Positions 4,738-28,585 are shown, counted from the first letter of the stretch. The stretch is 32,000 nucleotides of DNA from Promethearchaeota archaeon (GCA_030606485.1 JAUWGH010000010.1:30001-62000), one strand, 5' to 3'. The notes: generated by a model from the letters alone, not told the origin. Numbers and translations: made by a program.

Positions 4738-5045
4738 CTTGATTATTATAGGACTGAATCAATGAGTGTTTTAAATGGATAATAAACATAAGCAATGTTT
4801 TACATTGAAAATTTTTACATTTACTTTTACAGAATTTCTCATTATACTTTCTTCAAATTTATTTATTAAATTTTTCTTCTTGTTCATCTAATATTTTTTT
4901 ATTTCTCTATAATTGCCATAACGCTTAATTTCTTCTTATAGTTTAATTTATTATTTTCGATAAAAGGGTTTTTTATTGCCAATTGAATAGAGAAATTCGC
5001 TTTTCCTGCCGTCTTTCCTGTTAATTCGATTTCCCATTCCAGTTT

Positions 5046-6551
5046 TCAATTCAAATCCTTGTGGTTGGGACTTTTAATTATCTTGAGAGCAATCCTATTT
5101 TTTGGTTTCATAACAAGATCTAGTGTGACATCTTTAAGGACAATATCGGAGTGATTAAAGACATCTAAATTAAATATTTTATTTTCATTGAGTTTAGTAT
5201 CACAGAAGAATTTAGAATCATATTTTATTTCAATGCAATAATTGAATATGTAGGATTTGAACATATCTTGCAATAATTTTTGAAAGTTAGAGATATTGTT
5301 ATCTACGTCTGTTTTATTACTAAAATATCCAATTGTGCTTGATAATTTATATTCTGGAAGAAGAAATAGCATTCTTAAGGACTCATCTTCATTTAGAACA
5401 GGATACTTAGATTTAAGTTCTCTGATATAATGAAATTCGCCACCTAAAATGGAAAAAATAATAATTAAATAAGTCAGTTTTAAGAAATTTCTATAACGGT
5501 TCGGATCATTCTTAATCTCAGATAAACTCTTTAGAGTTTTGGGAAGGAAATATTTTTGATAAAAGATAGAAAAGAACAGATCTCGAAGAATAATAATCAA
5601 TTCCTTAGCCATTACTTTTTCAAGGAGAATTGGAGTATTTAATTTCTGAAATCCGTAATAAAAATATTTAAAGAGCGACAGGAATTCTTCAGAATTAATT
5701 AAAATCTTATATTTATTTAATATATCTAACGTTGAAAATATATTTCCTATGAATATTTTTAACTCATTTTCCGTATATATTTCATTTATTAATTTTAAAA
5801 TTTGGTCCTTATTTTCCATAAGGTTGAGTTCATAATTTTTTATATTCCACACTGGTGATACAGTTTCCCATAATTTGAATATCTGTTCTGCTTTTTTACC
5901 TCTTAATAACATTGCAGTAAGAAAATAACAAAAATCGTACATTAAATTTTCATTTTTCGGAATGATTCCCATTTTGCTAAGAAAATAAGTAATTAATTCC
6001 CGGTATGCAATTACATCAAATAAAGGCGTTTTATAATACTTAACATCGACTTTTAACAAGTTAATATCCTTCTGGACGCATAATTCTCTTTCATTAACCT
6101 CTTTCAAGCCCTTTACTGCAACTATTGAGAGTAGATATTTAATGTTTAATTCAAACTGATTGTTTAAGAGTTGTTGTGCTTTATTGAACTGTTCTTGATA
6201 ATGAGTAGAGATATCACCGATTGTCAATTTTGGTGGTTCTTTAGGTAGTGTGTATTCCTTTACCGTCCCTTTTTTCAATATTTTAAGCAATCTTTTCGTT
6301 TTTTCGAGATTTTCTCCACCTAACAATACCCCGTTGGATGTAAAAAAATAAATTCGAAAGAAATATTTGTAGTCAGCAACCACGAGATATTTTGCTCCTT
6401 TTCTTTGTTTTATCATCATAGATGGTAGAGATCCTATCGTTAGCACTGTTTTACTTTTTACTCGACATATTTCTAAAGTAAGGGGCTTTTTTTCATTAAA
6501 TTCTCTTTTGCCAAACTGTATTATTTCCTTTAAAACTTTTCTCAGACTCAT
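5046..6551 (-). CDS. Hypothetical protein; the frame continues 48 codons past the TGA to 4899
   Basis: 501-aa ORF with no recognised motif. A C-terminal beta-rich segment appears to be cut by the TGA. Confidence 0.75.
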   Translation of the reverse strand: MSLRKVLKEIIQFGKREFNEKKPLTLEICRVKSKTVLTIGSLPSMMIKQRKGAKYLVVADYKYFFRIYFFTSNGVLLGGENLEKTKRLLKILKKGTVKEYTLPKEPPKLTIGDISTHYQEQFNKAQQLLNNQFELNIKYLLSIVAVKGLKEVNERELCVQKDINLLKVDVKYYKTPLFDVIAYRELITYFLSKMGIIPKNENLMYDFCYFLTAMLLRGKKAEQIFKLWETVSPVWNIKNYELNLMENKDQILKLINEIYTENELKIFIGNIFSTLDILNKYKILINSEEFLSLFKYFYYGFQKLNTPILLEKVMAKELIIILRDLFFSIFYQKYFLPKTLKSLSEIKNDPNRYRNFLKLTYLIIIFSILGGEFHYIRELKSKYPVLNEDESLRMLFLLPEYKLSSTIGYFSNKTDVDNNISNFQKLLQDMFKSYIFNYCIEIKYDSKFFCDTKLNENKIFNLDVFNHSDIVLKDVTLDLVMKPKNRIALKIIKSPNHKDLN

Positions 6552-6661: not shown

Positions 6662-7522
6662 TTAGGCTTTTATATTCTCCAATGTATTTACAATATTCTC
6701 TTCGACTGAATTACAATCAAAAAACTCTGAAATCAATTCATTTTCAAAAAAAAATCTGGTTGTTAAAGATATGAAATATTTATTAGGAATATCTCCATCA
6801 ATTCTAAACAACTTTCGCTTATGTCGTCTTTTAATATTATTGAATGTAAATATAAGTGGATTATAATTTTCCTTTTCAAAAAGCAAAGCTTTGCCATCAA
6901 TATGTATAAAAAATCCTGAATTTATATCATAATAGGCATGAATACTTCTATTTAAGACAGAATCTTTACAATAATTTTTAGAAAATTCATACATATTGAA
7001 ATTTACTAAGTTTTGGTCATTTTCTAAATTAATTAGGATTTTTAATCCTATACCAGATGGTTTAAAAAATGCAGATTTGATCGAATTATGATTTTTTAGT
7101 AATTTTTGAATTATTTCACCGTTGATAATATCAAAAGGTACTCTATGACTTTTTATCCAAGATTTAGAGGGAATTATATTCATATGATCCAGCAACTTAT
7201 CCTTTGTAAGTATTAGACAATCATCTTCGAGTGCTTCCATTATGATAATGATATCTGCTTTGATACTTGGAGGAGATTGCAAAATAATACCTCGTTCTAA
7301 GTAATATTTGTAAGACCTAAGATCATCAATACAATAATACAGTTTCCGATCAGCTATACCGATAATCCAATATGAAGACTTTAATGCATTGAACATCAAA
7401 TCAATGTACTTTATTTTAGGGGGGAAATTATTATCATAACCGGCGATATTAGAAATATCTGAGATTATATGTGGTTTTATTTTTAACACCTTTAGAGAGT
7501 AATAATTGCAGAGAGACCCCAA
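6662..7522 (-). CDS. Hypothetical protein
   Basis: 286-aa ORF with TTG start and protein-like composition; no motif I can assign. Confidence 0.7.
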   Translation of the reverse strand: MGSLCNYYSLKVLKIKPHIISDISNIAGYDNNFPPKIKYIDLMFNALKSSYWIIGIADRKLYYCIDDLRSYKYYLERGIILQSPPSIKADIIIIMEALEDDCLILTKDKLLDHMNIIPSKSWIKSHRVPFDIINGEIIQKLLKNHNSIKSAFFKPSGIGLKILINLENDQNLVNFNMYEFSKNYCKDSVLNRSIHAYYDINSGFFIHIDGKALLFEKENYNPLIFTFNNIKRRHKRKLFRIDGDIPNKYFISLTTRFFFENELISEFFDCNSVEENIVNTLENIKA

Positions 7523-7704
7523 ATTAAAATCTCTTTATTTCTAAATTAACCTAAAACTCACGCACAAATCTTAATAACTACTTCTCACGCACTTAAATCT
7601 TATAATCTAAAAATAAGCACAAAACACTTACTATACAAATATTCTACCTACTCCCTACTCACAACAAGCTGAACACTTACTAAACATAAAACTGGGGCCA
7701 ATGC

Positions 7705-7729
7705 AATAGGTCTTAATATTTGACCTATT
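7705..7729. promoter_or_regulatory. Perfect 8-bp inverted repeat in a divergent intergenic region (candidate operator)
   Basis: AATAGGTC-N9-GACCTATT. Confidence 0.35.
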
Positions 7730-7880
7730 ATTAAAGAAGTAAACTGAACATTTATTTTTTATGGGAGATTACAGTTTTGTGTCAGATAAAAAACTTTAAA
7801 TAAAACCTTAACCAACTGTATCATGTAATACAATAATGCTTCTAAAGGAAAAAATTCGCGTGCATTTGTAAGCGAATTTA

Positions 7881-8336
7881 ATGAATAAAGAAAGGAGCTT
7901 TAAAAGACTTCAAAAAGGTGTTATAATGCAGTTAACTTATAAAAATTCAAATCTAGCTGCATTAGTTATAGCTATTATAATTTGTATAACTTGGATTGTT
8001 TTGGACTATACACCTTTTGTTTGGGGAGTCTTAATTCTGAGTATAATACTTTTTATCGGGTGGTCATTTTTCGAGAACAAGCCAGAAAGACCTTCTAAAT
8101 TTGAAGTTATAGCTCCTTATGTTTCTGGAATAATCTTATTGATAATTTGTTTATTGTTTAACTCCTTGACATATCTTTATATCCCTCTTATATCATTATG
8201 TTGGGCAATATTGTACCATATCACTTTCAAAAAACAAGAGAAGGTAAAAGAAAATAAACCTAGCGAGATAAAACAAGCAGATCGTAAAACAATTACCCCA
8301 AACACTAAAGAAAAGGTGTTAAAAAAAAATATTTGA
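7881..8336 (+). CDS. Four-helix membrane protein with a charged C-terminal tail
   Basis: Four hydrophobic stretches. Convergent with the orphan toxin ORF, 20 bp between the stops. Confidence 0.75.
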   Translation: MNKERSFKRLQKGVIMQLTYKNSNLAALVIAIIICITWIVLDYTPFVWGVLILSIILFIGWSFFENKPERPSKFEVIAPYVSGIILLIICLLFNSLTYLYIPLISLCWAILYHITFKKQEKVKENKPSEIKQADRKTITPNTKEKVLKKNI

Positions 8337-8356
8337 TTTATTTTATTTATATTTGT

Positions 8357-8869
8357 TTAATAAATCTCTAAACACCAATCAATGCATTCTTCCAAAGTCA
8401 TGGAACCTAATCCCCCTTCACATATAACACCATATACGAATTCACACCCTAAAGCAAAAATGAAAGCCCACCCACCAGTCAAAGCGAGTATCAATATAAT
8501 CGTACCGCAAAAAAAACCAGCTATAAGTGCACATCCAAAGACTTGTATAAACCAACATACTGCTATACAATCAGTTTGTCCAAAATCCATTAATTTTGCT
8601 GAACTCTCGATAATCTGTAGGTCGTATTTTGGGAGTTGTTGTTTAACTAAAATGGAGAGAATCCTAATTTTATCCTCCATAATGAAGTAATTTTGAGCCA
8701 GCTGTGCGATACTTTTATCTTCAGAAATTTTATAAGATTTATCGTAGATTTTCCCAATCTTTCTCGCAACTTTACCCAAAATGTTATACATTTCCGATAA
8801 TTTAAAGATCGAATTAAACTCAATCCGTTCAAAAGTATTTATCTTCTTCTCTGTTGGAGTAAATATCAT
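8357..8869 (-). CDS. Orphan, 5'-truncated halocin-C8-like precursor (pro-domain remnant plus 76-aa, 8-Cys hydrophobic tip)
   Basis: About 52/118 aa identical by hand to the pro-domain of 9817..11205. Homology extends in frame upstream of the ATG to 8947. The tip sequence differs from the main gene. No signal peptide. Confidence 0.75.
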   Translation of the reverse strand: MIFTPTEKKINTFERIEFNSIFKLSEMYNILGKVARKIGKIYDKSYKISEDKSIAQLAQNYFIMEDKIRILSILVKQQLPKYDLQIIESSAKLMDFGQTDCIAVCWFIQVFGCALIAGFFCGTIILILALTGGWAFIFALGCEFVYGVICEGGLGSMTLEECIDWCLEIY

Positions 8870-8947
8870 TAATGTGGATGATTTATTATAGAATTCTGAA
8901 TTGAGAGGGTTAAGGATTGTTAAAAGAGTAAAATTATATTCATCATT

Positions 8948-9250
8948 TCAACATCTTGAGCACGGATTTAGCAGGCAAAAACAAGCGATTTTCAATGGAG
9001 TTGCGAAAGGCAATGTCAGTCATATAGTTGTGATCCGTGGAGAAGATTGTTTAAAACTAAAGCATTGTAACGCTGAAGAATTAAATACGGATATTGTGGA
9101 GGAATATTCTGAAGAGGTCGTTAAGAAATTCAGAACTAAATTAAAAGTAGATATTAAAGAAAGAACCAGAACTTGGCGCACGAGGAGCCAACAATATAAA
9201 GATATAAATTTGGCAGTAGATATATATTATCAATGGAATAATAAAAAAAA
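8948..9250 (+). other. Unrelated coding fragment that truncates the orphan gene, possibly a transposase remnant
   Basis: Open frame (part of ORF 8901..9326) with ...DINLAVDIYYQW, loosely like the first Asp strand of DDE transposases. It begins exactly where homology to 9817..11205 ends. Confidence 0.3.
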
Positions 9251-9291
9251 AGAGGTCGCAATTATGTCGGGTGAGATGAATTTGCAACCTC
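9243..9291 (-). terminator. Hairpin plus U9 tract at the end of the toxin/immunity pair
   Basis: GAGGTCGCAATT (9252-9263) pairs imperfectly with AATTTGCAACCTC (9279-9291). The A9 run at 9243-9251 gives a U-tract on the minus strand. Confidence 0.55.
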
Positions 9292-9798
9292 ATATTTTTT
9301 TTTTTCCTTCCCCCCCAAATTATTAAGTGGAGGGGAGCTCCAAGTGGAAGGGAGTCTCCATTCTCTTTTTTTTCCTACTCTATACATTATATATGCTCCG
9401 AGTACATATGAAGACACCATAAGTAGGAGATGAATTCTACCTCTTAACACTGCATCCAAAACCAAAACTTGTAAGGGTGCCCAAGGGGCAGCAATAAGTA
9501 CATAGGCGAGAAAAATCCATATAGGACAACCTATACCCCATCCACCAAATCCTACCAATACTATCTTAATAATAATCTTTTGGTGTTTTGATATCCGACC
9601 ATAATACGCTAAAAATATCGCAAATGGGTAAAAAACTGTTAAAAGGATTGCTATCACCAAATTTATAATTCCAAGAGAAAATAACAGCCAAAGCATGAAC
9701 GTTGAGAATATACAACCTCCAATATTAACCCATAACCAGTTCTGTTTAAACTCTTTCCAAAAACCCTTGATCTTTCCTTTTACATTCATTACAATCAT
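9262..9798 (-). CDS. Multi-pass membrane protein, candidate immunity protein
   Basis: 4-5 hydrophobic helices; starts 18 bp after the stop of 9817..11205 on the same strand. Confidence 0.75.
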   Translation of the reverse strand: MIVMNVKGKIKGFWKEFKQNWLWVNIGGCIFSTFMLWLLFSLGIINLVIAILLTVFYPFAIFLAYYGRISKHQKIIIKIVLVGFGGWGIGCPIWIFLAYVLIAAPWAPLQVLVLDAVLRGRIHLLLMVSSYVLGAYIMYRVGKKREWRLPSTWSSPPLNNLGGKEKKKYEVANSSHPT

Positions 9799-9816: not shown

Positions 9817-11205
9817 TTAGCAACAACCTAGCATCTGACAAGCAATATAAGTACTTCCAGTCATAAGAAAATATTCTAATCCAAGAATACAGAATGCACC
9901 TGCACCAGGCACAAAGATAATTAAAAGTACACATGCTATGAATCCACCTGCAGCAACAGCAAGTTCACACAAAACACAGTCCCAGAAAGGGTCACCGCCA
10001 AAGCAGCCACCACCGCCAAGGAGGCCACCGCCACCGCCACCATTGGGTGTGTATGCATCAATTATAATTACTGAATTTTGTTGAATTGGTAAATCATATT
10101 CAGAAAGACATTTTTTTACAAGATATGAAAGTTCCTCAGCTTCTTTGTTCATGACCTTATAGTTGTTGGAAAAACCTTTTAACGAATCATCTTCACTATA
10201 TTTATATACTTCTCCAAGTTCTTTAGCTACTTCTCCTATAATATGGTATTGTTGTGATAATTTAACAGGCGAATTGAACTTTACGATCTCCATCGATGTA
10301 ATAGACTTTTCGTCGGCAGGGATATATCTTAAAATCGTGGAAGAACCATTATAGATTTCTGAATTGAGGGAAGTAAGTCTCGTATAAAAAGTCAAATTAT
10401 ATTCTTCATGTTGAGCTAGATAGTTTAGTTCATAAAATTGCGTGGACGTGTCTCCTGTAATGATTTCACTTGAAATGAAAGAAGCAGTTCTTTTGATTTC
10501 ATTTGTGATCTCATTATAACTCCATAGTAAAGTATTGATAATAGTAAACTCATAGGTTATACCATCAAACTCGTATGTTAGGAGAATTACAATATGATTA
10601 TCGTCTTGCTCTAACACTGTGGACGTGATAGTTATGGATTCACTGTTATCTGGGCATTCCTGATTACTGGTGCAGCATGGACAACCTGTCAGATATAGAA
10701 GTAGAGGTTCTATTTGAAGTTTTGGTTTTTCTATTCCATCTACTGTAACATAGTGATAAGTTGTCCAGATCGGGTATTTAACATCTATCCATGCTAGAAT
10801 GCCGCCAAGCATATTGTTGATTTTCGTAAAGCCATAGTTAACTAGGATTTCTGATGCTAATTGACTCCTGTCTCCAGCCTTGCAGTATATTATAATCTCA
10901 TGATTTACGTGATCTTCAATTTCGCTAATTCTTTTTTCAAGTCCATCGTAGGGTATTAAAATGGCATCGTATAAATGACCCTTCTTATACTCATACGGGG
11001 TTCTAACATCCAAAATTATAAGGTTTGGATATTTATTTTCTTTTTTTATCATGTTATAGGCAGTATCCACAGTAATGTTTTGAAAGGTTTGTTCTTCAGC
11101 AGCAACCGTTATTATTAAACTGAAAGATGGTAGCAAAAAGGCAACTATAATGAGCAGAGCTATTGTTTTACGACTTGTATATTTTAAATTAGTTTTTAAT
11201 TTCAT
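9817..11205 (-). CDS. Secreted rhodanese-domain protein with a C-terminal halocin-C8-like Cys-rich tip
   Basis: Basic then hydrophobic signal peptide. Rhodanese motifs LDVRTPYEY..GH, active-site loop YCKAGDRS and GGILAW. Also a GCPCC linker, a Gly-rich linker, and the tip CVLC..AAGGFIACVLLIIFVPGAGAFC..IACQMLGCC. Confidence 0.85.
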   Translation of the reverse strand: MKLKTNLKYTSRKTIALLIIVAFLLPSFSLIITVAAEEQTFQNITVDTAYNMIKKENKYPNLIILDVRTPYEYKKGHLYDAILIPYDGLEKRISEIEDHVNHEIIIYCKAGDRSQLASEILVNYGFTKINNMLGGILAWIDVKYPIWTTYHYVTVDGIEKPKLQIEPLLLYLTGCPCCTSNQECPDNSESITITSTVLEQDDNHIVILLTYEFDGITYEFTIINTLLWSYNEITNEIKRTASFISSEIITGDTSTQFYELNYLAQHEEYNLTFYTRLTSLNSEIYNGSSTILRYIPADEKSITSMEIVKFNSPVKLSQQYHIIGEVAKELGEVYKYSEDDSLKGFSNNYKVMNKEAEELSYLVKKCLSEYDLPIQQNSVIIIDAYTPNGGGGGGLLGGGGCFGGDPFWDCVLCELAVAAGGFIACVLLIIFVPGAGAFCILGLEYFLMTGSTYIACQMLGCC

Positions 11206-12432: not shown

Positions 12433-13518
12433 ATGGTATCTAGAAGAAATTTATCTAAGAAAAAAATTTCGTCCCAAAACATTTCTGTATCTCCTTACCT
12501 TAGAGATTGGGTCGAAAGGTATGTCAAGATGGAACAGAAAAAGAACCCTAACGATAAAAGAGTTAAGAGTATATCCTCCTTTTACAATTATGTAATGGAA
12601 TCTGTTCTAAAAATTTTCGAAAAGGGAAAAACCCTAGATGATTTAGAAATATTTGTGGATAAAAAAGTTCAGAATTTCTATGATAAAATCACATTTAGAG
12701 CGCTAATACCCTACTATGAGCAGATAATCAAAATAAACAAATATCAACCAATAGAATTTGATTGTTTAATAGATCTATTCTTAAAATATAGAAGTTTTCT
12801 TATCGGTAAAAATGAGCCTAGTGATGAGATCGCACTGAATATGATAGAAAGATTTAAAAATTTTATGCTCGCTAATAAATTGACCAAGGATTTCAAGATC
12901 GATATTATAAATAATTCTTATATCATAGAATATTCTGGATATTACCCCAATATACATTATGATCATTCGAAATGGATAGCTGGATTAGCTGGGCTTCTAG
13001 GTCTAAAGATAAAGAATTTGATCATATCTAATAACTTTTTAAGATTATCTCTTGAAAAGACTTCTCTGTTTAAAATTCGAGATTTGGAGATAGAAAGGAG
13101 AAGAGAGCTATTTTATTATAATGTTAATAAATTTACGAACTGGTACAGAGTTATAGATGATCAAACTCAACATCTATGGCTAAAAATGTCAAATAATAAA
13201 GATATAATCATTAATTTCAAGGATGTTACAAGTGGTCTTGAGTTTATAAATTCAATAATAAGAGACTTGGTGGAATATGCCAAAACAGAGAACTTAGTTT
13301 TAGATATTTTAAAATTATTTAGATATTTCCGCTGGATTGACATTGATAATTTTGAAAAACCATCATTTCACTTTTGTGTTGAGGATAAGCACCATCACAT
13401 TATAAGGGAGATGGTCTTTAATATATTACAAAAAATGAAAGTAATAATAAAAGAAGAAAATGAAATATTTTATTTAAACTTGAAACAAATCTCTTGCATT
13501 GACTATACAGTTCTCTAA
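12433..13518 (+). CDS. Putative regulator: N-terminal ribbon-helix-helix-like segment plus uncharacterised sensor-like domains
   Basis: NISVSPYLRDWVERYV...SISSFYNYVME has a strand-helix-helix pattern. The domain assignment is inference. Confidence 0.55.
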   Translation: MVSRRNLSKKKISSQNISVSPYLRDWVERYVKMEQKKNPNDKRVKSISSFYNYVMESVLKIFEKGKTLDDLEIFVDKKVQNFYDKITFRALIPYYEQIIKINKYQPIEFDCLIDLFLKYRSFLIGKNEPSDEIALNMIERFKNFMLANKLTKDFKIDIINNSYIIEYSGYYPNIHYDHSKWIAGLAGLLGLKIKNLIISNNFLRLSLEKTSLFKIRDLEIERRRELFYYNVNKFTNWYRVIDDQTQHLWLKMSNNKDIIINFKDVTSGLEFINSIIRDLVEYAKTENLVLDILKLFRYFRWIDIDNFEKPSFHFCVEDKHHHIIREMVFNILQKMKVIIKEENEIFYLNLKQISCIDYTVL

Positions 13519-15027
13519 TCTTATCTCATATTTTTTATTCATTTCACTTTCCATTCTTGGTTTAAACAACTCAAAGTTCATTTCGCTTATTTTTATCAAC
13601 GAACGAATTAAATTTTTGGCATATGGAGAGGAGGTAGATACGGGCGATTTAAGAAGTGCTTCCACAAATCTAGAATATACATCTAGAATCTTCTTTTCAC
13701 TTTCGTGATATGCTTTAAATGCGTATTTTAATGCGGAAAATCCTTTCCCTAGATTTTTATGCTCGAATGGAAAGAAACCTTCATGATATACGAATTCAGA
13801 TGGAAGATCATCTCCAAAAATTCTTCCCTCACTTTTAAGTTGTTCGTAAAGTGGCGTCATTGGAAGCGGTTTTAGAGTAGATATGAAATACCAGAGGGAG
13901 TCATATTCTAAATTTCTTTGTATATCAATTTCAATTGTCTTTTTATTATGTATCGGCAACCCAAGAATAAAGTTGTGATTCGTTATAATACCCATATCAT
14001 TAAGCGACTTAATAAAATTGTTATTTAAACCCTTATTCTTTTCGTATTTTTGAAGAGTGGATTCTATTCCATAGTTGACTAACATGAATTTGATAGCAGA
14101 TTCTTCTTGAATTTTTTTAAGGTTGAATGTTTTCAAATGAGAAAGCGAAATTAAACAAATGATATACATATAATTATTATATCTGCTCTTATTTTCAATA
14201 AAATAATCAAATACCTTTTTCCACACACTCTCTGGAAAGCAAGCATTTGGTTCACATAAATACAATATCATATCACCATCATTTGAGGACATTATTTTTT
14301 CTAGAAGTTCTATTATCTTCTTATGATTACTAAACGGATTGTACTGATAAATTGCGGAAGTAATACAGAAATCACATCTAAATGGGCAACCAATCTGGGA
14401 GACCATATAGGCGGTTTTCATATTTGTTAGAAAACTAAATTGATCAGATATAATTGTCGGCATTTTAAAACCTTCCCTGGAAATGGTAGGGAGGTTGAAT
14501 TTTTTACGAAGCCAGTTAATTCCATTCCCAATACATATGTTTTGCGGTTTAATCAATTTTTGTATATAAGGAAATAATACTCCGATACCGCCCGTGTATA
14601 TTTTTTTGTCTGGATAGTCTCTTTGAATCATATTTATCACATCTACGACTTTATTCAACCCATTTGCATAAGTACTTAATCCAATATGTGTAATCTCATC
14701 ATCTTTATCTAGAATATTCTGAGCATTTTGCACGTTGCACACATCATCAATCACAACAGAGTCAATCTCAGGCAGGTTTTCTGCTAGAAAGTGGCCCTCA
14801 ATATTAGGTGAGTTTAATATATTTGCATAAATAGCAGCATTAAAAGGATTTAATTTGTATCCATATTCGTCGAATGCTCTCTGTATTTCCTCCTTATCAA
14901 CATATTGGGGGTAATCATCATATTTTGGATCATTCAAAACTTCCAGAGCAAGATGCTCCGTCGGTTTTAATTCCTTTGAAAGAGTTTTTAAGAATAAAAT
15001 TTTTGGTTTTCTCAATAATAGCACCAT
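13474..15027 (-). CDS. Cobalamin-binding radical SAM protein
   Basis: CxxxCxxC motif (GCPFRCDFC) preceded by a Rossmann-like B12 domain (HIGLST...KIYTGG), followed by GIES and FILGLP TIM-barrel motifs. Confidence 0.9.
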   Translation of the reverse strand: MVLLLRKPKILFLKTLSKELKPTEHLALEVLNDPKYDDYPQYVDKEEIQRAFDEYGYKLNPFNAAIYANILNSPNIEGHFLAENLPEIDSVVIDDVCNVQNAQNILDKDDEITHIGLSTYANGLNKVVDVINMIQRDYPDKKIYTGGIGVLFPYIQKLIKPQNICIGNGINWLRKKFNLPTISREGFKMPTIISDQFSFLTNMKTAYMVSQIGCPFRCDFCITSAIYQYNPFSNHKKIIELLEKIMSSNDGDMILYLCEPNACFPESVWKKVFDYFIENKSRYNNYMYIICLISLSHLKTFNLKKIQEESAIKFMLVNYGIESTLQKYEKNKGLNNNFIKSLNDMGIITNHNFILGLPIHNKKTIEIDIQRNLEYDSLWYFISTLKPLPMTPLYEQLKSEGRIFGDDLPSEFVYHEGFFPFEHKNLGKGFSALKYAFKAYHESEKKILDVYSRFVEALLKSPVSTSSPYAKNLIRSLIKISEMNFELFKPRMESEMNKKYEIRLENCIVNARDLFQV

Positions 15028-15031
15028 AATA

Positions 15032-16039
15032 TTATTTATTTAATTTGTGAATTTTTGTTATTCCCATTAGTATTGCATCCTTTCCATTCAAATAAAATGG
15101 CAGGAATCCATAATATCTGATATTTAGGTTTAGAAGTAAGCTCTGTAATTGTCTATCATTAATATCAATTACAAAGGATAACGAATTAATTTCATCGGTG
15201 TAATAGAAATCGTTTACAATTTTTTTAATTATCTGATATTTTAAATCTAACGGGATATCATTTATGAATCGAAAATCATACCAAGATTTATGGTATTCAT
15301 TCTCGTATAATTGTGCGCATATACCTCCTTTGTTCATTACAAAATTTTCAGTTCGGATTAGAATCTCATATGGAAATCGATCTTCTATCTTTTCTATTTT
15401 AATTTTATACATTTTTTGAGTAGGAGTCGTTGGTAAAAATATTGGCTGAGCAACGATAAGTCGCTTTAAACCATTTTCTTTGATTGTTTTATAGAGATAT
15501 TTGCAAAACGCTATGTATGGAGTTATAAGTTTCCATTTAAAATCATATGATACCCTCCCAAAAATAATAAACGACTTATTTTTATCATGCATAGGAGTGG
15601 TCCCCAGTTTTACAAAATTATGATTTGTAAGTATTTTTAATATTGGAGTATTAGTGCTACTTACAAATGCATATATACATTTAAGATCAGATTCATTCAA
15701 ATTATTTAATACTTGTTCCATATGAAAACTTATGAGTGTCATAACACCTATGCCTTTGTATTTTTGATTCCCCATTGTCAGCTTTAAGAATGCTACGCCA
15801 TGCTTTATTACACTTAGCATCTGTGCGATTAATTTCCCCTTGTAAAAACCCCCCTTCCAAAAAACGTTATTTTTATCAATGTTATCCTTTATATAACTAC
15901 TAATAATTGCTCTTTCGTAGAACTCCTTCTCTGGATACTCATTCCCATATATTTCCTTAATTAAATTAATAATTTCATCTATATCTTCATAGATGATATC
16001 CCTTACTTCGACTTCTCTCAGAATTTTATATTTTTTCAT
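15032..16039 (-). CDS. GNAT-family acetyltransferase-like protein (probably two GNAT-like domains)
   Basis: VRDIIYEDIDEIINLIKEIYG start, YKGIGVMT motif-A-like segment, NHNFVKLG motif-B-like segment; 4 bp upstream of the radical SAM gene. Confidence 0.7.
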   Translation of the reverse strand: MKKYKILREVEVRDIIYEDIDEIINLIKEIYGNEYPEKEFYERAIISSYIKDNIDKNNVFWKGGFYKGKLIAQMLSVIKHGVAFLKLTMGNQKYKGIGVMTLISFHMEQVLNNLNESDLKCIYAFVSSTNTPILKILTNHNFVKLGTTPMHDKNKSFIIFGRVSYDFKWKLITPYIAFCKYLYKTIKENGLKRLIVAQPIFLPTTPTQKMYKIKIEKIEDRFPYEILIRTENFVMNKGGICAQLYENEYHKSWYDFRFINDIPLDLKYQIIKKIVNDFYYTDEINSLSFVIDINDRQLQSLLLNLNIRYYGFLPFYLNGKDAILMGITKIHKLNK

Positions 16040-22987: not shown

Positions 22988-25597
22988 ATGGATGTAAAAA
23001 AGAAAGGATTTATAATTTACGGAAAAGTCTTAGGAAAAGTAAGCAAAAAAGGGATTACTAGCTTGACAGTTGAAGCATTGGATAAAGATCTATTATTTGA
23101 TGATCGTTTGGGCACTGCAATTACTAATAAAGATGGTAATTTTGAAATTCTGTATGATAAAGAAGATTTTCAAGAACTTTTTCTTGATTTAAAACCAGAT
23201 ATATATTTAAGGGTGAAAAATCCAAAGGGAGAAATCATATATACCACAGAAGACAAGATCAAATATGGGGTTATAGGGGTAGAAGAGTTTAATATAGTTA
23301 TTTCAGAAAAATTGATCGAAAAAATAGAAGTTGAAAGCGAAAGGCTACAATTTAAGAAATTAACGGATATCAATCCTAATTACTTTGGAAATATAATCGA
23401 TAAGAAACTCGCAATTCAATATCTCCCTGTATATGAAATGACAAATAATGTTAAATACGAAGAGTTAGTATGCGTGGGTTCTTATCCTGAAGATAATATA
23501 CTAATGGCTATTATTGAAGTAAAATTGCCTTATGGTTATAAGGGATCACTATGTAAAGCAGGTAGCAAGGAATATGTAGGTTTTTATATTGATTACAATG
23601 ATGGCGTCGGTTTTGTAAGTGTGGGCGCAATAACAGAGGTAAATGTTCATGATATTTCTTTTGTTGATGGAGGACATCTTTTTTATGCTGTACGCAAATC
23701 TTTCATTCCCAAGGATTATTTTAAATGCAATAAATCACAAATAGTTAAAGTGAGGGCGATTTTATCTTGGGAACAATTACCAACGGGTCCTAATTTCGAA
23801 CCAGTATGGGGAAATGTTGTTGATACATGGATTCAGATTAAACCAATATATCCAATTTTTTATTCTATCCCCCAATTTAAACTTTTACCAGAAGTAGAAA
23901 TAAAACCTATTGGATTAATTCCTTCTGTTGAAAAGTTTGTAATTGCAGGGGATAAAGAAGAAATTATAGAATTAATAAATAAATCCATCGAAGCGGAAAA
24001 GAGAATAAAAGAAGAAGGAAAAGTTGAAGTAGAGCGGCTTGAATTTAAGAAGATGATTATGAAAAATCCAAATTACTTCGGCTCGATTACTGAATCTACA
24101 GATAAAAATAAGATTTTCAGAGTGATACGCCATCTTCCCCCAGATACTATCAAAATTTTACTCCCTAAACTTACAATTGATCCTAACATGCTTGTACCAG
24201 TAAAATTTTATATTCTGAAAACAATGTATGAAGAATTAAAATGTATCGGACTCTATCCTAATGGTGATCTTTTGGAAGCAGTTATAGAGATTAAATTGCC
24301 GTACGGGTTTAATGGTGATTTATGTACTCTAGGTAGTAAAGAGTATGTTGCTTTTTATATCGATTGGGGTTCAGGTTATAAGCATGTAGCTACATCGACG
24401 GTGGGAGTTCACGACATCCCCGTTGTAAATGATAAACATCTTTTCTATGCCGTAAAGGCAAAAATTCCTAATATAAAATCAAAATTGAAAGATTGTCCTA
24501 TTGAAAATATTGTAAAAGTCAAGGCAATATTATCTTGGAATGAAGACCCAACCCCCTATGGGCATATTTATAAACCAACATGGGGAAATGTATTAATAAG
24601 GAATATCCAGATAAGGCCAAAAGATGGAGTAAGCGTTAAATGTGATATTGAAATTGTCAATGAAGTGCATATTGATGAAATAAGTCAAAGTGGTATTAAT
24701 GAAGGGCTTGCCATTAAGATTGATGCGTCAAACAATGCAGTTCCATTGATATATGATAGACCTTTTGGAGGTATCATTGCATGTTGGGGGAATATAAATG
24801 TTTGGGGTGCAGCATATTACAGATTTAGATATAGCAATGATGAGGGTATTACTTGGAAAAATATTACGGATGAGAGGAAAGCACGTAATACATTTCCTTT
24901 GTTACCTGTTATCACAAGAACTCCAGATAGTAATGGATGGTTTAGTAAGAGTGAATATGATACTGATATAGATAACTATAGTCTTGCTCCCTTGGTACAT
25001 TGGAGGAGTTATGGAAAGGATAATAAATATTTGCTAAAGCTTGAATTAGCAGATGCAGAGAAAAATCCACTTCCTGGACAAACAACTGATGTCTCACTTA
25101 TACTGGATAATAGAGAACCTGAACTTTTTACGTTTGGTGGAACTCCACCCCCAACACTGCCTACTAAAGGTGTTACTGTCAAAGATAGCGAAGGAAATTA
25201 TAAAAAATGTGATGCATTTATCGGAAATAAGGACTGGGAAGTATCTTTAATCTTTATCTATGGTAATTTCAGAGATGACTATTTTAAAAAATTTCGATTA
25301 AAAATATTTGGAGGAAATATTTCAGAGTCTGGTGAACAAATAGGTGAAGAAGTTCGATATGATGATCCAATTCCAGGTGTTGATGAACAAGGCATTATTG
25401 GTGCCATCGATGGAGGACTTGGTCAAGAGATTGGAAATTTAAATTTATGTCCTGATAAAATAAAGTGCGCTTACGGTATAGAACTCACGATTTGGGATAG
25501 ATCGATTGTGGGCTCTGTTAGAGGATATGAATTTAATACATATAATCACGGAAAAGATGCTTTTGTAACCTTTGATTGGGACCCCAAAGGTTGTTAA
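22988..25597 (+). CDS. Large beta-rich protein: transthyretin-like domain, two internal ~170-aa repeats, DRPFGG C-terminal region
   Basis: LTVEALDKDLLFDDRLGTAITNKDGNFEI domain. The motif ERL.FKK....NPNYFG...YEEL.C.G.YP...KLPYG..G.LC..GSKEYV.FYID...HD...HLFYAV...VKV.AILSW...WGNV...IQI.P occurs twice. No signal peptide. Confidence 0.85.
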   Translation: MDVKKKGFIIYGKVLGKVSKKGITSLTVEALDKDLLFDDRLGTAITNKDGNFEILYDKEDFQELFLDLKPDIYLRVKNPKGEIIYTTEDKIKYGVIGVEEFNIVISEKLIEKIEVESERLQFKKLTDINPNYFGNIIDKKLAIQYLPVYEMTNNVKYEELVCVGSYPEDNILMAIIEVKLPYGYKGSLCKAGSKEYVGFYIDYNDGVGFVSVGAITEVNVHDISFVDGGHLFYAVRKSFIPKDYFKCNKSQIVKVRAILSWEQLPTGPNFEPVWGNVVDTWIQIKPIYPIFYSIPQFKLLPEVEIKPIGLIPSVEKFVIAGDKEEIIELINKSIEAEKRIKEEGKVEVERLEFKKMIMKNPNYFGSITESTDKNKIFRVIRHLPPDTIKILLPKLTIDPNMLVPVKFYILKTMYEELKCIGLYPNGDLLEAVIEIKLPYGFNGDLCTLGSKEYVAFYIDWGSGYKHVATSTVGVHDIPVVNDKHLFYAVKAKIPNIKSKLKDCPIENIVKVKAILSWNEDPTPYGHIYKPTWGNVLIRNIQIRPKDGVSVKCDIEIVNEVHIDEISQSGINEGLAIKIDASNNAVPLIYDRPFGGIIACWGNINVWGAAYYRFRYSNDEGITWKNITDERKARNTFPLLPVITRTPDSNGWFSKSEYDTDIDNYSLAPLVHWRSYGKDNKYLLKLELADAEKNPLPGQTTDVSLILDNREPELFTFGGTPPPTLPTKGVTVKDSEGNYKKCDAFIGNKDWEVSLIFIYGNFRDDYFKKFRLKIFGGNISESGEQIGEEVRYDDPIPGVDEQGIIGAIDGGLGQEIGNLNLCPDKIKCAYGIELTIWDRSIVGSVRGYEFNTYNHGKDAFVTFDWDPKGC

Positions 25598-27904: not shown

Positions 27905-28585
27905 TTATAATAAAATTTTTAATACTTTATCAACACTCGATTTATTTTGCTTTAATCTCCCTGAAAAATAAGTAATTAGGTGATATACACATTCCGAAAG
28001 GGTATTGTAATTAAAAGTAAGGCAGGCAAGCTCAACTTCATAACTTGCGATATGCTTCTGCTTAGCTTTATCAAGAGCGTATTTTGCTAGCTTTATCGTA
28101 TTTTTATGTAATGGTCGTAGCTTTTTAATTTGAGCAATTTTCTTTTTCTCCTGTTTAAATTCCTGATTTGTAAGGTATACAACGTCAACATAACATTTGG
28201 GATTTAAAAAATCTATATGGACAGCCTTGTCCCCCATATGCACTTTAGAATTCTTCTTAAATCCTTTTTTAGCCCTCTCTAAAAGATCCTTTCGAATAGT
28301 ATTCTTATTTTGATCTTTGCCAGTACAAAAAATTATGTCTAAATCGCTCTTCCTAATATCTGTTCGCTTCCCTCGTGATCCACCTTCCTTTATCGCTGCG
28401 ATTTTAAAACCTGTAGTCTTTCGTAGGAAGTTCATAACTCGGTTTAATTTCGAATCATATAATGTCTGGGTTTGAGGATCGGTATTAATTTTCTTTAAAA
28501 ATTCTTTAAGCTTTCTATTCTCTAATTTCTTAAGACTACTCGTTTTTTCCACCTTTGTATATTTATTGAAATAGTATTTTAACAA
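27905..28585 (-). CDS. Pol-beta-superfamily nucleotidyltransferase, OAS/CD-NTase (SMODS)-like
   Basis: GGSRGKRTDIRKSDLDII fits GS-x2-K-x-T-x4-SDxD. Third Asp in YVDVV. C-terminal IKLAKY...IASYEVEL resembles the OAS/CD-NTase lobe. Start is uncertain (TTG). Confidence 0.75.
   Translation of the reverse strand: MLKYYFNKYTKVEKTSSLKKLENRKLKEFLKKINTDPQTQTLYDSKLNRVMNFLRKTTGFKIAAIKEGGSRGKRTDIRKSDLDIIFCTGKDQNKNTIRKDLLERAKKGFKKNSKVHMGDKAVHIDFLNPKCYVDVVYLTNQEFKQEKKKIAQIKKLRPLHKNTIKLAKYALDKAKQKHIASYEVELACLTFNYNTLSECVYHLITYFSGRLKQNKSSVDKVLKILL

Follow-up and report, generated by a model that had tools for sequence, protein, structure and literature searches.

A 32,000-nucleotide stretch of DNA from a Promethearchaeota archaeon genome (GCA_030606485.1 JAUWGH010000010.1:30001-62000), called the window throughout, carries a gene, P0001, whose product is a secreted precursor that ends in a short hydrophobic, cysteine-rich module, here termed the tip. 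Analysis of this gene, its relatives and its neighbours indicates that it is probably part of a polymorphic toxin-immunity locus of archaeocin type, a reading that is drawn from sequence and gene organization. The front of the precursor is conserved and the tip is highly diverse with a sharp breakpoint between the two, the gene directly downstream (P0003) codes for a small membrane protein that tracks the tip type, relatives of this membrane protein are spread in the manner of immunity genes, and both headless orphan cassettes and a patchy distribution are observed. Taken together these traits constitute the organization of a polymorphic toxin-immunity system. Asgard archaea are the closest prokaryotic relatives of eukaryotes and almost nothing is known of how they compete with their neighbours. 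The locus provides a concrete, testable candidate in the form of a short synthesisable peptide together with one membrane protein expected to neutralise it.

Direct reading confirms P0001 as an open reading frame of 462 amino acids on the minus strand at 9817..11205. An initial interpretation made without database searches (the sequence-only reading) had described a signal peptide, a Gly-rich linker and an 80-residue hydrophobic tip with eight cysteines at these positions, all of which is borne out; the rhodanese domain was absent from that description. The signal region is conserved in the family alignment and its helix is modelled by AlphaFold2 over residues 11-32. The rhodanese domain matches PF00581 with 56.2 bits (cut-off 22.2; 5e-15), and in the active-site loop C108 is kept in at least 90% of the sequences of the family alignment while R113 is invariant. 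A Foldseek search with the full-length model retrieved the rhodaneses 3gk5 and 1gmx, with template modelling scores of 0.78-0.89 by target, and matched nothing beyond the rhodanese. The beta-rich pro-domain that follows reaches a predicted local distance difference test (pLDDT) value of 88 when folded alone. It has no sequence match in the PDB and a structure search with it returned only beta-barrel fragments (Z at most 5.7, template modelling score below 0.5); a new fold is not claimed. A Cys-rich loop (CPCC...QECP) after the rhodanese, at residues 168-186 (10648-10704, minus strand) or, as delimited within the pro-domain, 170-188, is modelled with low confidence and contains C178, which is nearly invariant across the family. 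The linker before the tip reads PNGGGGGGLLGGGG in P0001, and its counterparts in relatives are rich in Gly or Pro and vary in length. The final 80 residues (9820-10059) are hydrophobic, with a grand average of hydropathy (GRAVY) of 1.15, exactly eight Cys and no Lys or Arg. Curated sorting-signal models (PGF-CTERM and similar) are found neither among the NCBIfam matches of P0001 nor among the 25 of 39 families listed for 68 tips of the family.

The strongest contrast within the precursor is that between its front and its tip. A search with residues 150-462 recovered 74 relatives, and a genome scan places relatives in Promethearchaeota, Bathyarchaeota, and Sulfolobales and their relatives. The distribution is patchy, with the family present in 19 of 400 genomes of the phylum in addition to Bathyarchaeota and Sulfolobales. 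Among 49 full-length relatives the mean pairwise identity amounts to 63% in the rhodanese, 53% in the middle domain and 54% in the helices, as opposed to 24% in the tip. Position D383 is invariant and conservation drops abruptly at residue 384. BLAST sorts the 68 tips into at least 16 groups, and a sharp junction of this kind, with 53-63% identity before D383 and 24% after it, is the pattern known from polymorphic toxins. The possibility that the tip is an invariant membrane anchor across homologs, which the sequence-only reading had named as the finding that would speak against a toxin, is at odds with such hypervariability. Across the family, tips are 57-116 residues long; 54 of the 61 complete ones have an even number of cysteines (8-22), their median count of Lys plus Arg is 0 and their mean GRAVY is 1.21, which fits disulfide-locked secreted peptides and not positive-inside membrane anchors.

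Some family members extend beyond the Cys-rich tail. For example, P0029 (583 amino acids) has a Hint-type domain behind it (PF05203, a precomputed match) that could process the C-terminus of the tail. Additionally, P0033 (678 amino acids) and the member at L040 (994-2784) have in common a module after the tail that starts with CPILS.(W/Y)NG, and the members at loci L014-L016 carry about 140 extra residues after the tail.

The gene downstream of the precursor goes with the tip. All type-A tips that are placed on contigs (those of the window and of loci L001, L026 and L027) are followed at +19 to +24 nucleotides by a P0003 homolog with 59-64% identity, and the tip at locus L003, which is related to type A, is followed by one at +35 nucleotides with 45% identity. 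In P0084 a type-A tip sits on an unrelated coiled-coil N-terminus without a rhodanese, and a P0003-family gene is again found at +19 nucleotides (45% identity, E 2e-18). Tips of other types have other small proteins with 2-4 transmembrane helices next downstream, and beside a more distant tip type the neighbour is a protein with four transmembrane helices and a remote relative of P0003 (hhalign probability 79%, E 1.7e-5). The downstream gene thus covaries with the C-terminal module and not with the N-terminal part, in a sample that is small and partly made up of related genomes. The sequence-only reading had regarded the precursor as a secreted protein whose Cys-rich hydrophobic C-terminal module behaves like a toxin warhead, and this is supported both by the variability of the tip and by the finding of a tip-specific membrane-protein partner for type A, P0084 included.

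Within the taxonomic family, 25 of 135 genomes contain relatives of P0003 and 12 of 134 the pro-domain of the putative toxin; in one genus the corresponding counts are 11 of 42 and 1 of 42. P0003-family genes often form tandem paralog arrays, also where there is no precursor gene. Arrays of two or three paralogs, located upstream of a precursor gene or without one and some with in-frame stop codons, are seen for example at L003 (4369-4872 and 5208-5687, plus strand) and on contig 115 of genome G145 (7114-9086). A second copy in the genome of the window (contig 3 of G000, 24507-24932, plus strand; 59% identity in a frame of 160 residues) is located about 5 kb before the start of the window, away from any precursor gene, and looks like a lone immunity-type gene. 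A structure prediction of the complex of tip and P0003 gives weak support to their pairing: it scored 0.39 against 0.00 for the best of three controls, with runs agreeing in at least 89% of contacts and a partner pLDDT of at least 70, and in calibration 58 of 80 solved complexes attained that mark, as did 2 of 110 mismatched pairs, with seven of those 80 and both mismatches lying at scores of 0.60 or less, where a pass is more often wrong than right unless the pairing is already likely.

Several Bathyarchaeota loci without an adjacent membrane gene on the same strand (L014-L016, L021) have a nearby transmembrane protein of 234-279 amino acids with an N-terminal helix-turn-helix region of the LHKILKD..R.KI type. 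These proteins are encoded at 7816-8520 (minus strand) in L014, at 8155-8904 (minus strand) in both L015 and L016, and at 4978-5817 (plus strand) in L021, with four predicted transmembrane helices in L014-L016 and two in L021. The C-terminal motif of those in L014-L016 resembles the immunity-like family.

Beyond P0003 the window holds an orphan cassette with a tip of another type (type B), the features of which are listed in Table 1. Comparable arrangements recur elsewhere, as in loci L006 and L010 a main gene is followed by a transmembrane gene, an orphan and sometimes another transmembrane gene, an immunity-like gene stands alone in L011, and partial family matches are present in several genomes of the phylum. 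The occurrence of 5'-truncated orphan modules together with lone immunity genes is a further hallmark of polymorphic toxins. The open reading frame of 151 amino acids that is convergent with the orphan is unrelated to the P0003 family and has no relative in the loci compared; none was found beside the other type-B tips, as the contigs of these end early or carry a transposase. At L025 (1681-3004) a full-length gene with an orphan-related tip (P0006) is followed on the opposite strand by an rve-type integrase or transposase and not by a membrane gene.

Table 1. Features of the P0001 locus, with positions counted from the first nucleotide of the window.
Feature	Position	Strand	Description and basis
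Precursor gene P0001	9817..11205	-	Signal peptide, rhodanese, beta-rich pro-domain, helical hairpin, linker and Cys-rich tip (direct reading, Pfam, NCBIfam, AlphaFold2)
Signal peptide, residues 1-36	11098..11205	-	Sec-type: basic n-region, hydrophobic core, VAA/EEQ end, no twin-arginine
Rhodanese domain, residues 48-140	10786..11064	-	PF00581 match, conserved active-site loop, Foldseek
Beta-rich pro-domain, residues 147-315	10261..10767	-	Family-specific; curved sheet of 8-9 long antiparallel strands in the predicted structure
Helical hairpin and junction strand to invariant D383, residues 316-383	10057..10260	-	Last conserved segment before the breakpoint
Gly-rich linker, residues 384-399	10009..10056	-	Disordered in the model
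Type-A tip core, residues 400-462	9820..10008	-	Motif GCFGGDP.WDC..C ... P.AG..C ... GCC; 8 Cys; three helices modelled
P0003, candidate cognate immunity protein	9262..9798	-	178 amino acids, 4 predicted transmembrane helices; starts 19 nucleotides after the precursor stop codon
Orphan cassette	8357..8947	-	5'-truncated; frame opens directly after a stop codon; matches family positions 270-460
P0002, orphan from its first ATG (8869)	within 8357..8947	-	170 amino acids; without signal peptide and without rhodanese
Type-B tip of the orphan	8360-8584	-	8 Cys; differs from the P0001 tip; full-length counterpart P0010
Open reading frame convergent with the orphan	7881..8336	+	151 amino acids, about 4 transmembrane helices; membership in the system unproven

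From these data we propose a working model for the locus. The precursor would be exported by the Sec pathway, with its first 383 residues (the active-looking rhodanese, the beta-rich domain and the helical hairpin) serving as a common export, maturation and carrier part. The segment after D383 would be a swappable warhead that consists of a flexible linker and a hydrophobic peptide of about 63 residues without Lys or Arg charge and presumably with four disulfides. Cleavage near D383 would leave the tip peptide released or presented outside the cell, where it may insert into the membrane of competing archaea, and P0003 may shield the producer, either by binding this type of tip within the membrane or by excluding it. 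The truncated cassette (8357-8947) would then be a displaced remnant, namely the 3' end of a family gene, earlier or alternative, that had another tip. A secreted membrane toxin of archaeocin type, which the sequence-only reading had proposed as the function, is well supported by this context of variable tips, tip-tracking neighbour and orphans, from which we infer toxicity.

A number of points weigh against such an assignment. The case is built wholly from architecture and neighbourhood, and the related genomes on which it draws are non-independent observations. With its hydrophobicity the tip could remain in the membrane of the producer as a C-terminal hairpin, and neither a processing protease nor a dedicated exporter is conserved beside the gene. 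The conservation of the N-terminal part, which holds an active-looking enzyme domain, goes beyond what a simple carrier would require. The orphan is without a recognisable immunity partner, and its pro-region has diverged well from that of the main gene, with roughly 40% protein identity over their common stretch as judged by eye. Such divergence makes ongoing cassette switching in this genome unlikely, and in our reading the orphan would be a displaced remnant rather than an active switching partner.

The tip had also been likened to halocin C8 (HalC8) in the sequence-only reading on the strength of sequence anchors. The profile check proposed in that reading did not bear out membership in the halocin C8 family. 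TIGR04449 (halocin_C8_dom), with a curated cut-off of 24 bits, matches neither P0001 as a whole nor its tip alone at E up to 1, and gives no match at E up to 10 to the type-A relative P0012 or to the 3.75-Mb genome of the window; above the cut-off it is found in 0 of 400 genomes of the phylum. As a positive control the same model matches Haloferax volcanii pHV4 at 50.1 bits. The HalI-type domain PF22862 (Hac8_like_N), which bona fide HalC8 homologs do carry, has no match in P0001 at E up to 1, and comparing the family alignment (A5) with an alignment of ProC8-like proteins (A6) by hhalign yielded nothing (probability 4%, 11 columns). There is no RR in residues 1-36 of P0001, whereas the H. volcanii homolog has the twin-arginine translocation (Tat) motif RRSFVRR. 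The comparison sequences were annotated HalC8-domain proteins from H. volcanii pHV4 and from Halobacterium and Haloferax larsenii plasmids.

Part of this resemblance does stand, as the CxxC start and a C-x13-C with V-P-x-A-G, the latter preceded by an AA.G.FIC-like stretch, are in register, but the alignment is not significant. BLASTP of the tip against the H. volcanii HalC8 domain gives E 8.7, and hhalign aligns only 21 columns, which cover this likeness, with a probability of 2% and an E of 0.023 that applies to a single comparison. Close relatives of the tip do not themselves conserve the AAGGFI stretch. The tip has eight cysteines and HalC8 has ten, with C-x16-C fitting, on weak statistics, if one HalC8 cysteine is skipped. 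Against a small local hidden Markov model of HalC8 the tip outscores all 200 shuffled versions of itself (z 3.2) with an absolute score of only 1.8 bits. Ten of the 68 tips likewise outscore at least 198 of 200 shuffled versions of themselves. The likeness exceeds composition, with the caveat that shuffling destroys Cys spacing and hydrophobic runs, traits that are common to any such peptide. When 1.84 billion proteins were searched exhaustively with a profile of the type-A tip, 13 matches resulted, none of which has the HalC8 precursor architecture. A word-indexed search with the tip alone gave 22 candidates, all from the protein's own cluster, without retrieving HalC8; the same type of search with the H. 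volcanii HalC8 domain gave only five close relatives, too few for a diverse profile. Finally, a feature search of the ESM Atlas with the tip reached scores of at most 0.83, with a cluster of circular bacteriocins at 0.75, below the useful level.

We weighed whether the tip could be a true but very divergent halocin C8 homolog that descends from the HalC8 domain and works alike, with only the precursor front replaced. Its position at the extreme C-terminus, its length of about 65-80 residues and its hydrophobic, disulfide-rich character would all suit such a descent. TIGR04449 is moreover the family matched by most tips (5 of 68 at E up to 1), and P0010, whose tip is of the orphan's type and is the highest-scoring of the family, comes near the cut-off with 22.4 bits (E 1.8e-4), the orphan P0002 itself scoring 12.5 bits. 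However, the P0010 match is not collinear, with tip residues 10-32 falling on profile positions 43-65, and together with the profile, search and architectural results given above this makes a divergent halocin C8 unlikely in our estimation. We conclude that the tip bears no more than a loose resemblance to halocin C8 and cannot be detected as belonging to its family; from the sequences, a distant common descent of the Cys-rich tails with HalC8 is possible but unproven. Two of the haloarchaeal plasmids (Halobacterium, L045 1789-1995; Haloferax larsenii, L046 1784-1990) carry a conserved hydrophobic hypothetical protein of 68 amino acids about 20 nucleotides downstream of the annotated halocin C8-like genes, which may act alongside HalI as an immunity or accessory protein in the membrane.

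Two further explanations concern function rather than descent. A variable tail with a membrane partner might constitute a cell-surface identity tag that serves non-lethal self/non-self recognition or adhesion, as in kin recognition. Polymorphism, neighbour covariation and orphan cassettes also fit such a tag and the tail could remain embedded in the membrane, but genomes with the membrane-protein family are about twice as many as those with the tail gene, and the family forms arrays without that gene, which is typical of immunity genes that are kept for protection. The tips also lack any extracellular variable surface except the hydrophobic peptide itself, and we regard this explanation as quite improbable. 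To a sulfur-transfer enzyme anchored at the cell surface, in which the rhodanese would handle thiosulfate, polysulfide or persulfide outside the cell, the tail would act as an anchor or as a sulfur or electron relay and the protein with four transmembrane helices would be the membrane partner, we assign an even lower probability. The conserved catalytic loop, the strong constraint on the N-terminal part, a host habitat of sulfidic cold-seep sediment, the existence of rhodanese/DsbD-type fusions and a weak match of P0001 to NCBIfam TsoB are all compatible with an enzyme of this type. An anchor or relay would nonetheless be expected to show conservation, whereas no part of the protein is less conserved than the tail, which also lacks flanking Lys or Arg. 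In addition, P0084 has the same tail type and the same partner without a rhodanese, and an enzyme model leaves no room for headless orphans or for the arrays of paralogous partner genes.

Under the preferred reading, a polymorphic toxin-immunity locus, the rhodanese could itself contribute to the toxin. We consider, as a doubtful proposition at present, that the exported rhodanese might be a built-in maturation enzyme that acts in cis or on neighbouring precursors and installs the disulfide, persulfide or polysulfide bridges of swappable Cys-rich warheads. The setting of this idea is an anoxic, sulfidic sediment and archaea without a Dsb system. If true, a toxin precursor that carries its own sulfur-chemistry foldase would exist across Asgard and TACK archaea. 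The obligatory fusion of the tips to an active-looking exported rhodanese points to an unexplored route by which disulfide-rich peptides could be made in a reducing environment. A radical-SAM-like gene 2.3 kb away (13474-15027, minus strand, 517 amino acids) was considered as a modifying enzyme and rejected, as its match of 17.9 bits is below the cut-off and no radical-SAM-sized neighbour was seen in the listed related loci, though no specific search for one was made. This gene is adjoined by an open reading frame of 335 amino acids without an assigned family (15032-16039, minus strand).

The Asgard, non-halophile origin that the sequence-only reading had surmised is supported by the occurrence of the locus in a further Promethearchaeota archaeon genome of the same genus and by the presence of the window DNA in cold-seep and marine-sediment metagenomes of several studies. 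No RNA datasets are listed as containing the locus. Metagenome contigs matched to the locus are fragmented unitigs, with depth spikes over the conserved pro-region at 10257-10373 and over P0003 and with a single, poorly supported joint that links the start of the orphan to the main gene; since these signals come from contigs at 88% likeness, we draw no conclusion on recombination. Elsewhere in the window, an open reading frame of 226 amino acids (27905-28585, minus strand) matches the SMODS nucleotidyltransferase domain just under the cut-off (25.5 versus 26.5 bits) and may, by its sequence, be a defence gene resembling those of the cyclic oligonucleotide-based antiphage signalling system (CBASS). 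The large open reading frames at 22988-25597 (plus strand, 869 amino acids) and 5046-6551 (minus strand, 501 amino acids) have no Pfam match at E up to 0.01.

In the searchable full texts, a coverage that does not include the 2019 survey by Makarova et al., no description was found of a rhodanese-fused polymorphic Cys-rich family or of a rhodanese in connection with archaeocins or polymorphic toxins. If our reading is true, the logic of polymorphic toxins, with swappable warheads, orphan cassettes and hoarded immunity genes, would extend to membrane-active peptides in Asgard archaea, Bathyarchaeota and Sulfolobales. A Cys-rich hydrophobic tail that resembles HalC8 can fail TIGR04449, and surveys that require this model, such as a 2026 preprint (10.64898/2026.07.27.741052), cannot see such families.

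Comparison with known systems shows both likeness and difference in each case. Like the halocin C8 precursor ProC8 of Natrinema sp. AS7092 and other TIGR04449 proteins, P0001 is a secreted precursor with a C-terminal hydrophobic, disulfide-rich peptide of about 65-80 residues; both tips begin with CxxC and contain C-x13-C with VP.AG, and in both a small membrane-protein gene is located directly downstream, in the haloarchaeal plasmid copies the hydrophobic 68-residue frame. In contrast, P0001 has no TIGR04449 match, eight rather than ten cysteines and a Sec-type rather than a Tat signal. It has a rhodanese and a beta-rich domain in place of HalI (PF22862), its immunity candidate is a separate protein with four transmembrane helices, and its family has polymorphic tips and orphan cassettes in a non-halophilic Asgard host. 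The class II (unmodified, membrane-active) bacteriocins of Gram-positive bacteria are comparable in that a small hydrophobic membrane-targeting peptide is encoded beside a small multi-pass membrane immunity gene that is specific to the peptide type. These bacteriocins differ in having short double-glycine or Sec leaders, a usually cationic character and few cysteines, as opposed to the folded pro-region of 383 residues and the tips with 8-22 Cys and no Lys or Arg described here. Exported single-domain rhodaneses (E. coli PspE and GlpE-type sulfurtransferases) are alike in fold, in the catalytic Cys-x4-Arg loop and in extracytoplasmic location, but in the present family a pro-domain and a polymorphic Cys-rich tail are joined to the rhodanese.

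Bacterial polymorphic toxin systems with orphan cassettes (CdiA-CT/CdiI, Rhs and related systems) were reportedly described by Zhang, Aravind and colleagues in 2012, and archaeal ones are said to have been treated by Makarova et al. in 2019. The family described here is alike in its conserved N-terminus, its sharp junction and its hypervariable C-terminal modules that occur on different N-terminal architectures, as well as in the cognate gene directly downstream, the 5'-truncated orphans, the lone immunity genes and the patchy distribution. It differs from CdiA-CT/CdiI and Rhs in that the presumed warheads are small hydrophobic disulfide-rich peptides instead of soluble enzymes and that the immunity candidates are multi-pass membrane proteins. 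Furthermore, a signal peptide is the only delivery element, with no parts of a secretion system and no delivery repeats (Rhs/YD, filamentous haemagglutinin), and the conserved part of the precursor holds an enzyme domain, the rhodanese.

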